In this document: piece after piece, positions 6,358-47,746 of the stretch
Position numbering within the stretch: position 1 is the stretch's first letter
Layout of the letters: each line of letters begins with the position of its first letter
The notes under the pieces: model-generated
Database searches by the model: none
The model's input: the letters and a program-made list of their open reading frames with translations, nothing else
What the model was told of the DNA's origin: nothing
Position numbers and translations under genes: made by a program
NCBI GenBank assembly: GCA_964016885.1
Contig: OZ024754.1
Coordinates: 2,666,001-2,730,000, forward strand
Source of the DNA: Eledone cirrhosa
Lineage: Eukaryota
Length of the DNA stretch: 64,000 nucleotides
Direction of reading: 5' to 3'

Positions 6358-6550
6358 ATGTATCTATATATCTATGTATATATATATATATGTATATATA
6401 TATATATATATATATATATATATATATATATATATATATATATATATATATATATATATATATATATTATATATATATATATATATATATATATATATAT
6501 ATATATATATATATAATATAAGATCAAAAGATGGTTAAAGGAGTTCCATG

Positions 6551-6621
6551 TATTTTATTATGCGCATTTCAAAAACAAACATCATCATGCAATAATATTT
6601 GTGTTTTCATCAGATAAAACA
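6551..6621 (-). ncRNA. Type I hammerhead ribozyme motif (mirror copy)
   Basis: Reverse complement of 6733-6803. Confidence 0.75.
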
Positions 6622-6732
6622 GGAGAACATGATATGAAGGCTAAAAAACACTTGTGGATAGTGCAGTTTTAAATCAACAGTTTAAAACTGCACTATCCAC
6701 AAGTGTTTTTTAGCCTTCATATCATGTTCTCC

Positions 6733-6803
6733 TGTTTTATCTGATGAAAACACAAATATTATTGCATGATGATGTTTGTTTTTGAAATGCGCATAATAAA
6801 ATA
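6733..6803 (+). ncRNA. Type I hammerhead ribozyme motif
   Basis: tgttttat-CTGATGA-long stem II-GAAA-TGCGCA-TA-ataaaata; palindromic stem III and 8-bp stem I. Confidence 0.78.
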
Positions 6804-6990
6804 CATGGAACTCCTTTAACCATCTTTTGATCTTATATTATGCATACTCCAGTCCTACAAACTGTAGAGTGCTTCTTATCCGATATCTGCATTGCTTTAT
6901 TGTACTACAATAAAACTCACCTCCTACATATATATGTATATATATATATATATATATATATATATATATATATATATATTTATTTATTTA

Positions 6991-7062
6991 TTTATTAAAA
7001 TAACAGATTAAAGTTTAAGCAAAGAATCGTTGCTTTCACCCTTAACGGGATCTTCTGAAACT
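6991..7062 (-). mobile_element. Family E short element (tail-less)
   Basis: tttattaaaataacagattaaagtttaagcaaagaatcg...cccttaacgggatcttctg is repeated at 24414, 29161, 45868 and 63365. Confidence 0.75.
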
Positions 7063-7791
7063 AACAAAGTCATATATATATATATATATATATATATATA
7101 TATATATATATATATATATATATATATATATATATATATACATATATATATGTATATATTCAAGTACATATATTTACAGGGTGTATCAAAGATGATTTTG
7201 AAATTGGATGATTTCATTCATATATATATATATATATATATATATATATATATATATATATATATATATACATAGATATATATATATACATATATATATA
7301 TATACATAGATATATAGATACATATCTATGTGTGTTTGTGTGTATATCAAGTATTAAAGTATACTTGTATGTTCTATTTTTTTAATATAAAACCTGCTGA
7401 TTCTAAGAACATCCTACATACCTAACTAACTGATTGACATCGTTAACCCCGAAATTACACCTGTTCTCCCCGGTTGAGGCAACACACACCTAACTTATAC
7501 CTTCTCTGCTTCATAAATTCCTGTCATAAAAATTCTTTACACCCATTACTATGTTTAAAATTTTACCTAACGATCTATCGATTTCTTCGATCTCATATGC
7601 CTCACACCACTTCTTTCCCTCTCTCTTTCCCTCTCTCTCTATCTCTCTCTCAGACACACTGACTGACATATGTATGTATATATGTATGTACATATATATA
7701 TATACACACACACACACATATATATATATATCGGTGTGTGTGTGTGTATGTGTGCCTGTGTGTGTATTTGTGTATAATATATATATATATA

Positions 7792-7870
7792 TATTGGGTT
7801 GCCAAGTATGAAATTTGTAGAAATTTGTAGAAAAAAGTTTCTACAAATTTCATACTTGACGACCCAATAT
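7792..7870. mobile_element. Mariner-type mini-MITE
   Basis: Inverted termini tattgggttgccaagtatgaaatttgtagaaa / tttctacaaatttcatacttgacgacccaata in a TA context. Confidence 0.65.
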
Positions 7871-45770: not shown

Positions 45771-45789
45771 GTAATAATAAATAAAAAAT

Positions 45790-45993
45790 ATGAACACTAA
45801 AATCTGAAGAGGACTCGATAAGGATTATATATATATATAAATATATATAAGAACCGTAGAGCAAATATTTATTAAAATAACAGATTAAAGTTTAAGCAAA
45901 GAATCCCTGCTTTTACCCTTAACGAGTTTCAGAAGATCCCGTTAATGGTGAAAGCAGCGATTCTTTGCTTAAACTTGAATCTGTTATTTTAAT
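45790..45993 (-). mobile_element. Family E foldback-plus-tail element
   Basis: Arms 45871-45924 / 45940-45993; tail 45790-45870 matches 63291-63365. Confidence 0.72.
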
Positions 45994-46084
45994 TTATGTG
46001 TGTGTGTGTGTGTGTGTGTGTGTGTGTGTGTGTGTGTGTGTGTGTGTGTGTGTGTGTGTGTGTGTGTGTGTGGTAGAATAATGA

Positions 46085-46437
46085 AGAATACATAGTCGAC
46101 TGTACAATAGGGTTTATTTAACGTATTAACAATTGTTTCATTAGTCAGGTGAGTCTAAAAGTCGCTGATCGTTAGAAGTTACGTCACTCGACCTTAATTA
46201 CAGTCGAAACCCGACCAATTCGTCAGAATACTGTTTATACTTTAAATAAACCCTATTGTACAGCCGACCATGTTATTATTACTCCAAGAACCACCTGCCT
46301 AGGAACTTTCTTAAACAGGCCACCCGATTAAGGAAACTTGTTGTTGAGTCAAACAACGTCGTACGTTAAAATTATCCCCGATCCAAAGTACTCACAACCT
46401 CTAACTGGATTACCTTAAACGATACCTTGTTATCTTA
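46085..46437 (+). mobile_element. Foldback-plus-tail element with a hammerhead
   Basis: Diverged arms at about 46087-46131 / 46232-46277, tail to about 46437. Confidence 0.68.
46123..46231 (-). ncRNA. Type I hammerhead motif with a large stem II insertion
   Basis: Minus strand: gtatt-CTGACGA-attggtcgggt...acctgactaat-GAAA-caattg-TT-aatac. Confidence 0.75.
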
Positions 46438-47201
46438 TATATATATATATATATATATATATAAACATGATTTTAAAAATGAGGCTTGTTTGCATAATTG
46501 CAAACGAATCGAATATTATTATTAATATTCGATAAACTCAGATATATGTATATATATATATATATATATATATATATATATATATATATATATATATATA
46601 CATATACACACACCCACACATACATTTGAATATAGTATATGTGTGTGTGTATGTATTATTATTACTTTATGTTATTAACCGGGAAGCCAAGACGAATTAC
46701 AAATTGTTGATTTCAACAGAACACGAAATACAATTGGTAACAAGATAGATTTGCTAGATTGGCTTATAACTTGCACCTGTTTAACACACACACACACATA
46801 TATATATATATATATATATATATATATATATATATATATATATATATATATATATATATATATATATATATATATATATTTGTGTGTGTGTGTGAGCATG
46901 CAAGTATGTAAGTATGTATGTATTTACATACGTATGCAAGTGTGGATGGATGTGTGTATGTATATATTTGTGTATGTATGTGTGAATGTCTATGTCTCTC
47001 TCTCTCTACACACACACACATACACATACACATATATATGAAATATTATAAAGGAATATTCCACTAATAATTTTGTAATAAAGTGTAAAAAGCTCAATCT
47101 GTGCTTGTATATAGATATTCACTCATGAGGCTACTATTTGCCAGTTTTATATATATACATATATGTATATATATATATGTATATATACACATATATAAAT
47201 A

Positions 47202-47516
47202 GGGAGACACAAAGCAGGCTTTGTTTAGAAAGAGCTAGCGAATTTGAAAATTAGGTAGTAACATGTGGTTACGCCGTGTTTGACTAAATAGAATTAGTTT
47301 GTTAGTTGGGATTTTAAAAAACCTTCTGAATGGAAAAAAAGGATCAGCATTGACATACATGGGTCACAAATCCACATCTTTTTCCATTCAGAAGGTTTTT
47401 TTTAAATCCCAACTAACAGACTTATTCTATTTAGTCAAATACGGCGTAAGCATATGTTACTACCTAATTTTCAAATTCTTCACCCGTTTCTAAACAAAGC
47501 CTGCTTTGTATCTCCT
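47202..47516. mobile_element. MITE-like foldback element in (TA)n
   Basis: Diverged arms of about 135 bp at 47202-47337 / 47381-47516; related partial copy at 47793-47953. Confidence 0.65.
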
Positions 47517-47580
47517 TATATATATATATATATATATATATATATATATATATATATATATATATATATATATATATATA

Positions 47581-47746
47581 TGTTGATTTAAAACTTGACT
47601 ATTCACAAGTGTTTTTTAAGCTCCATATCATGTATCCCTATTTTATCTGATGAAAACGCAGATATCATCCCATGATGATATTTGTTTTTGAAATGCGCAT
47701 AATAAAATACTTGGAACTCTTTTAACTATCTTTTGATCTTATATTA
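47581..47746 (+). mobile_element. Family A solo copy (tail-less)
   Basis: Homologous to the arm of 6514-6840. Confidence 0.8.
47639..47709 (+). ncRNA. Type I hammerhead ribozyme motif
   Basis: tattttat-CTGATGA-aaacgcagatatcat..atgatatttgttttt-GAAA-TGCGCA-TA-ataaaata. Confidence 0.8.

Follow-up and report, generated by a model that had tools for sequence, protein, structure and literature searches.

The 64,000-nt window analysed here (the whole stretch, positions 2,666,001 to 2,730,000 of contig OZ024754.1) carries short foldback and solitary repeats that are probably the 5′-truncated ends of Penelope-like retroelements (PLEs), generated, it would seem, from nicked strands of TA runs by cDNA synthesis starting either at an internal site or at the end of a 3′ tail. 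Membership of the PLE class is likely and rests on non-coding features. The window consists of AT-rich eukaryotic DNA dense in microsatellites, with simple-repeat masking covering 13,954 bases, and its repeats were surveyed by masked self-BLAST, the output of a generic repeat finder being dominated by microsatellites. Among 18 near-inverted matches, 11 were foldbacks with tail-type anatomy (Table 1); left out were two hairpins nested in foldbacks F and I, one pair of separate family M copies, and four matches of other kinds (at 7795, 23399, 48815 and 49508). The 24 pieces of the foldback and solo families make up about 8% of the window.

In 10 of the 11 foldbacks, a microsatellite, (TA)n in most cases, adjoins one arm, and the second arm continues into a tail of 54-159 nt followed by a TA-rich run. 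No foldback had two tails and one (47203) had none, a distribution that departs from an independent 50:50 choice (p=0.006). Both end types were also found in solo copies, tail-less in families A, M and E and tail-bearing at 3092, 63283, 62716 and 54700, together with a tail-only fragment at 62604. Moreover, the tail-less arm reached further 5′ in all four foldbacks in which this could be decided, by 6 nt in A, by 15 nt in E and by a whole hammerhead motif in I and N; A and E were judged against solo copies, and F, C, P and B have no such reference. Arm reach was about symmetric in G and in the M foldback at 28559, and ambiguous in the M foldback at 2776.

The position of the internal end was compared among the copies of each family. 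The foldback arms of family A are identical (158/158), and its solo copy at 47581-47746 and the minus-strand left arm starting at 6514 diverge from the tail-bearing arm after one common base (..CTTATATTAT, window position 6841), past which both continue as (TA)n; the agreement of these ends (2/2) bears out the preliminary description, according to which the solo copy ends where the inverted arm starts. The four tail-less ends of family M (2776, 24121, 28559 and 61596) all fell at offset 0 of one site, the uniform chance of which is about 2e-5. That all four lie at one taggaa position thus held for the position and, for the literal letters, in three of four, the copy at 61596 having ..TTTTTCAT instead. 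Similarly, the three true M tails (2806-2915, 3092-3200 on the minus strand and 28574-28673) ended at one base, +77 (chance about 8e-4), and the copy at 54817, in which an M-like tail follows a different arm, ended at +68, not +77. In family E, the end lay at offset 0 at 29161, at -1 at 6991, and about 5-6 nt short, in A/T-only sequence, in the foldback arm at 45993 and at 24414; this agreement within about 6 nt upholds the earlier placement of these ends at about one point. The positions at which M and E copies had been said to begin are, judged by hammerhead orientation, actually 3′ ends of minus-strand copies.

The ends of family A in other loci were obtained from the contigs of run X1, which is probably the window's own sample and in which 4192 contigs were placed. 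The contigs in X9 (35) and X5 (53) were counted as traces and not as independent hosts, because X22, raw reads with the organism label and study of X9, gave 0 reads. In X1, 167 of the 4192 placed contigs fit A only partly, and at least 122 of these were broken down by row. On the 3′ side, row 6841 held at least 20 contigs, continuing ATATAT, and row 6929 at least 6, continuing TATA; at least 39 contigs in row 6828 continued with about 20 other letters and then TA (consensus agreement 0.73), and row 6827 held at least one. Of the two sharp 3′-end peaks that the preliminary description expected, both were present for A, and the largest of the 3′-side rows listed, 6828, was one that it had not predicted; this end is read here as that of a sister subfamily, the alternative being a third end. 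The A element extends 5′ of 6681 in at least 52 contigs, which indicates that the 5′ ends in the window are truncations. Summed contig depth, which is not copy number and was not counted as proof, was lower in the tail than in either arm, 2.3-fold relative to the near arm and only 1.2-fold relative to the far arm.

In row 6834, at least four contigs in X1, and one in X9, put the A tail behind different upstream sequence; from such contigs and from the M-like tail at 54700-54876, tails may be swapped or shared between families. At 54863-54904, the final 14 nt of a tail recurs as an inverted copy across (AT)7 in a tail-to-tail arrangement, and a similar one occurs with the G tail fragment at 62604-62720.

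Identity between arms could also result from homogenisation after insertion, and this was rejected: the E arms are 92.6% identical against 94-97% among E copies, and there is no difference between the A copy and the high-depth contigs that it matches, youth thus being enough to explain the identity.

A descriptor of type I hammerheads applied to the unmasked sequence returned eight strict motifs, against a mean of 0.03 (maximum 1) in 30 shuffles, and ten motifs with a relaxed core, against 0.27. The strict motifs belong to A (three), G, I, N and the two H solos; a further match at 51626, with a poor stem II, was left out. Motifs were assigned with the relaxed core in E, by a scan for the 3′ half in C, and by eye in M, F, B and P. 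The sequence of stem I varies among families with its complementarity kept, and loop III is mostly palindromic. The four copies that extend to the hammerhead-like core of family E (7012-7062 and 24433-24483 on the minus strand, and the copies at 29161 and 45871) all have CAGAAGA there in place of CTGANGA, with stems I and III intact. All the motifs are oriented towards the tail, and this establishes the sense strand; in the 12 arms measured, the predicted cut precedes the internal end by 9-80 nt.

These features were compared with published PLEs, as described in the available portions of the papers cited. PLE insertions show strong 5′ truncation, an adjacent inverted truncated copy, a tail of 30-40 bp on one end and (TA)n targets (PMC8557442). 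In the window, an adjacent inverted, 5′-truncated head-to-head copy was found in the 11 foldbacks and a 3′ tail on one end only in 10 of the 11, and the terminal repeat was predicted by the descriptor to hold a hammerhead of type I; partial tandem arrays, as direct pseudo-long terminal repeats, were absent from the direct repeats of the window, in which only short ends are present. As in the PLEs described by Craig et al. 2021 (PMC8557442) and Arkhipova et al. 2013 (PMC3846280), the microsatellite targets hide target-site duplications. Metazoan PLE terminal repeats hold minimal type I hammerheads, some of them paired on opposite strands at distances of 100-700 bp. The motifs found here, predicted from sequence, resemble those reported by Cervera and de la Pena 2014 (PMC4209133): helix III is short and palindromic, helix II is long, and the motifs occur singly and dispersed or as opposite-strand pairs, family E differing in its CAGAAGA core and longer helix III.

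The closest comparison in terms of initiation is PAc, the Poseidon PLE of Anolis carolinensis, whose purified protein nicks and extends both target strands and starts at two internal RNA sites, the tail being the stretch between them; a dimer was predicted (Frangieh et al. 2024, PMC11167929). In PAc, and putatively in the window, two start sites bound the tail; in both, genomic copies end on these sites, a hammerhead motif lies upstream and the target is AT-rich. Unlike PAc, in which the tail measures 30-40 bp and lies inside the start of an open reading frame (ORF), the families described here have the longer tails given above, (TA)n targets and frequent short TA homology; the text of the PAc paper, in its available part, does not discuss inverted insertions. 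The fixed internal start of reverse transcription that the preliminary description proposed upstream of the tail is supported, such a start having been demonstrated in vitro with a PLE (PMC11167929); the hammerhead motifs, the flanking (TA)n, the truncated 5′ ends and the tails on one side only agree with published PLE anatomy (PMC8557442, PMC4209133). The internal start and the class are already published, and the new detail consists of tail length, one tail per foldback, arm asymmetry and the motif ACTC[C/T]. The passages available of PMC8557442 and PMC3846280 ascribe the tail to endonuclease resolution and palindromes to self-priming, and mention neither arm asymmetry nor a motif 3′ of the internal site. 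The literature searches yielded no report of arms of unequal length, of PLE twin priming or of tails this long, a weak negative that leaves older subscription papers uncovered.

With respect to clade, the hammerhead motifs point tentatively to a canonical PLE clade. Naiad PLEs, whose endonuclease is N-terminal, share the (TA)n target preference, tails and inverted copies, and were rejected since they lack canonical hammerheads, whereas the families here have hammerhead motifs; Neptune, characterised by a CX2-5CxxC linker ahead of a C-terminal GIY-YIG domain, is the clade linked to microsatellite bias, and only that bias fits (PMC8557442). Retrozymes without long terminal repeats, in which a unit with a hammerhead forms head-to-tail tandem arrays, were also rejected, hammerhead copies being dispersed or inverted and never in direct tandem by self-BLAST; the available part of a retrozyme preprint (10.64898/2026.07.22.740005) held no mention of a tail or of initiation.

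The internal site shares at least 2 nt with the TA run in 6/9 families (null mean 1.9, p=0.004), a modest signal. ACTC[C/T] is located no more than 25 nt 3′ of that site in 7/9 families, six of them within 7 nt, E and P being without it; any such 4-mer attained 7/9 families in 1e-4 of random draws. An ACUC:GAGU stem was present in the lowest-energy fold of 5/12 tails (F, G twice, M twice), and tails align poorly across families (37% column identity). As a lead, ACTC[C/T] may be a binding or boundary element, and the ACUC:GAGU stem likewise.

What has to be explained is that each family ends in two sharply defined ways, carries its tail on one side only and has hammerhead motifs upstream of the internal end and variable 5′ ends; the published PLE activities comprise nicking and extension of both strands, two internal RNA starts and a predicted dimer. 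On this basis, one nick would prime at the internal site, often at RNA UAU or AUAU able to pair with the TA primer, and the other nick would prime at the tail end, both cDNAs stopping early. Their 3′ ends would be joined head to head, with an overlap of 0-6 nt or with filler, giving (TA)n-arm-arm-tail-(TA)n, and a single fixed cDNA would leave a tail-less or a tail-bearing solo. In L1 twin priming, both nicks in the target prime synthesis on a single RNA, and the outcome is an inversion at variable internal positions with nothing duplicated; the families described here differ in that their internal site is fixed and their two cDNAs would overlap, which gives a palindrome. Junction filler with perfect hairpins of its own (6079-6115 and 34015-34049) was observed at the foldback centres of 6006-6254, 33870-34118 and 52555-53175, and this hairpin-bearing filler suggests snap-back repair synthesis.

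More speculatively, both cDNAs might derive from one RNA, the internal cDNA leading and the tail cDNA trailing, a proposal held only tentatively. It would explain one tail per foldback, the longer tail-less arm and the letters shared between arms: in both M foldbacks (2776 and 28559), which have different centres, the arms share letters that differ in other M insertions. Independent site choice by two primings would give half one-tailed foldbacks, and 10/11 were observed. Two RNAs from one source locus, together with an asymmetric dimer, would explain these features equally. A more particular form, which seems rather doubtful, places a PLE dimer on one RNA, with the leading reverse transcriptase site set by the downstream ACUC stem and by 2-4 nt of TA-primer pairing, in the manner of telomerase template boundary and alignment, and with a displacing reverse transcriptase trailing from the tail end. 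If true, a fixed single tail per foldback and a longer tail-less arm would follow as a single rule for PLE inverted insertions.

Among the alternatives, the one that survives best, although improbable, is the folding of a single tail-end-primed cDNA at its 3′ end, followed by self-copying up to the tail boundary (for example, a bound protein), solos being leftovers. Fold-back explains one tail per foldback (10/11) and the insertion-specific letters common to the arms of both M foldbacks; in addition, the centre of the M foldback at 2776 lies within a natural hairpin, and in one reading its tail-bearing arm is 14 nt longer. However, under fold-back the tail-less arm should never extend 5′ beyond the tail-bearing arm, and in A, E, I and N it does, which argues against fold-back because a tail-less arm cannot then hold element sequence that the tail-bearing arm never reached. 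Fold-back also yields neither the tail-less solos nor the tail-free foldback at 47203 directly. The earlier suggestion that the arm-plus-tail half comes from a second priming event is thus favoured over fold-back by the longer tail-less arm (4/4) and by the solo end types, and is still something that we infer.

The published account of palindromes at PLE inverted junctions, proposed for rotifer PLEs, is self-priming by antisense RNA, which makes a head-to-head palindrome (PMC3846280), and hairpins are present at the centres of F, I and C. It is nevertheless very unlikely to apply here, given that centres vary among insertions of one family, that tail-less solo ends at the arm boundary are left unexplained, and that sense-RNA internal starts have now been shown in vitro (PMC11167929). 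It is equally improbable that the tail-less solos are what remained of foldbacks after palindrome deletion, or slippage in (TA)n, had removed the half made up of arm and tail, in which case they would be uninformative on priming. Palindromes beside microsatellites are unstable, and the A solo and the tail-less arm at 6514 are nearly equal in 5′ reach, but later loss still requires a fixed internal end, and the window contains tail-bearing solos and a tail-only fragment as well. Finally, TA-targeting cut-and-paste miniature inverted-repeat transposable elements (MITEs), with solos as broken halves, are barely credible as a source: although a MITE-like palindrome with TA on both sides occurs in the window (7795-7866), recurrent one-sided tails, hammerhead motifs and centres that vary, together with solos that are ragged at the 5′ end and fixed at the 3′ end, speak against them, and a Tc1/mariner-type MITE is largely refuted in A, M, E and G, where one arm continues into a conserved tail, so the arms are not terminal inverted repeats.

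Several results weigh against the interpretation of these repeats as PLE ends with two fixed starts. PLEs with an endonuclease encode a telomerase-like reverse transcriptase and a GIY-YIG domain in a single ORF, and no remnant of either was found by Pfam in the 145 longest of the 244 open frames (copies of at most about 280 nt per arm are too short for such an ORF); no full-length element was found either, and pattern scans of metagenome, viral and prokaryote collections for longer copies gave 0 matches. Rfam gave no hammerhead in the two regions run singly, nor among the 150 of 437 matches listed, which comprised only low-score miRNA-type matches on microsatellites. The tails are longer than the published 30-40, and those of F, I, N, C and P are each defined from one copy. 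Arm asymmetry rests on four cases (p=0.06 against 50:50), and an ungapped walk makes the tail-bearing arm the longer one in the M foldback at 2776. Among the rows listed for run X1, 6828 and not 6841 is the largest 3′-side row of loose ends. The p-values of the ACTC[C/T] motif are too small, as families may share ancestry, and tail folds are mostly no better than those of shuffles (z below -2 in 1/12). Furthermore, the PAc start site was reported as not homologous to the target (PMC11167929).

How tandem and inverted PLE structures arise was named as an open question in the available text of PMC8557442, and the density of such insertions is very high in this genome. Elements of this kind are easily mislabelled as MITEs or miRNA hairpins.

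Table 1. Foldbacks, solo copies and other dispersed repeats of the window, with the basis or a particular feature of each.
Feature	Position	Strand	Basis or remark
Family A tail-less arm	6514..6676	-	Abuts (TA)n at the internal site; hammerhead motif 6551-6621
Family A tail-bearing arm	6682..6841	+	Hammerhead motif 6733-6803; start 6 nt further 3′ than other arm
Family A tail	6842..6928	+	Length 87 nt, running up to (TA)n, with ACTCC at +4
Family A tail-less solo	47581..47746	+	Hammerhead motif 47639-47709; 88% identity to A arms
Family M foldback with 77-nt tail	2776..2915	+	Tail-bearing copy 2806-2915
Family M tail-bearing copy without inverted arm	3092..3200	-	End mapping
Family M tail-less solo	24121..24150	-	End mapping
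Family M foldback with tail	28559..28673	+	Arms overlap by CG at centre; tail-bearing copy 28574-28673
Family M tail-less solo	61596..61655	-	Holds 3′ half of hammerhead motif, read by eye
Tail-bearing copy, M-like tail and different arm	54700..54876	+	Hammerhead 3′ half at 54748
Family E tail-less solo	6991..7072	-	Hammerhead-like motif 7012-7062, variant core CAGAAGA
Family E tail-less solo	24414..24492	-	About 5 nt short; motif 24433-24483
Family E tail-less solo	29161..29229	-	End at offset 0
Family E foldback, tail on left	45790..45993 (foldback 45871-45993)	-	Tail-less arm 15 nt further 5′
Family E tail-bearing copy without inverted arm	63283..63409	-	(TA)n on both sides
Family G foldback with 81-nt tail	29306..29487	+	Hammerhead motif 29309-29359
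Family G tail-bearing copy	62716..62840	-	Repeat comparison
Family G tail-only fragment, separate	62604-62650	+	Repeat comparison
Foldback I with 90-nt tail	33870..34208	+	Whole hammerhead motif (33918-33984, minus) in tail-less arm only
Foldback N with 159-nt tail	46090..46432	+	Whole hammerhead motif (46123-46231, minus) in tail-less arm only
Foldback F with tail of about 97 nt	6006..6352	+	
Foldback C with tail of about 127 nt	52555..53305	+	Arms 278/279 identical; hammerhead 3′ half at 53085 and 52645
Foldback P with 54-nt tail	45003..45565	+	Decayed hammerhead-like motif by eye; without ACTC[C/T] motif
Foldback B	47203..47515	.	Tail on neither side
Family H solo	11795..11910	-	Hammerhead motif 11841-11896; end 50 nt past predicted cut
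Family H second copy	63465-63580		End 54 nt past predicted cut
SINE-like copies	27483-27672, 29918-30315, 31033-31410, 37876-38244, 41518-41868		Self-BLAST
SINE-like copies, further	45585-45770, 54304-54465, 59234-59411, 60158-60345		Self-BLAST

Other repeats were also observed in the window. A very abundant family of 180-190 nt, similar to short interspersed elements (SINE-like in Table 1), has some of its copies in tandem according to self-BLAST. This dispersed repeat, present at 27483, 29918, 45585 and elsewhere, is tentatively labelled octopus-like. In Octopus vulgaris, 30 recently active Penelope families were reported in the accessible part of PMC13282606, which bears on the window only if that label is right. 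Self-BLAST also revealed a tandem array at 17502-18007 with a unit of about 60 nt. Tail-free elements with TA flanks, which are MITE-like or bear terminal inverted repeats, lie at 7795-7866, at 5870-5932 with 7174-7213, and at 23265-24070, and are presumably of Tc1/mariner type. On the minus strand, an ORF of 358 amino acids at 48806-49924, which looks like the ORF1 of a long interspersed element, has a degenerate CCHC knuckle near its end; Pfam gave 0 matches, with zf-CCHC look-alikes at 0.92. The 3′ side of this ORF is cut off by an 18-bp perfect hairpin and ends in ..TTTTCC against (TA)n, similar to the internal end of family M.

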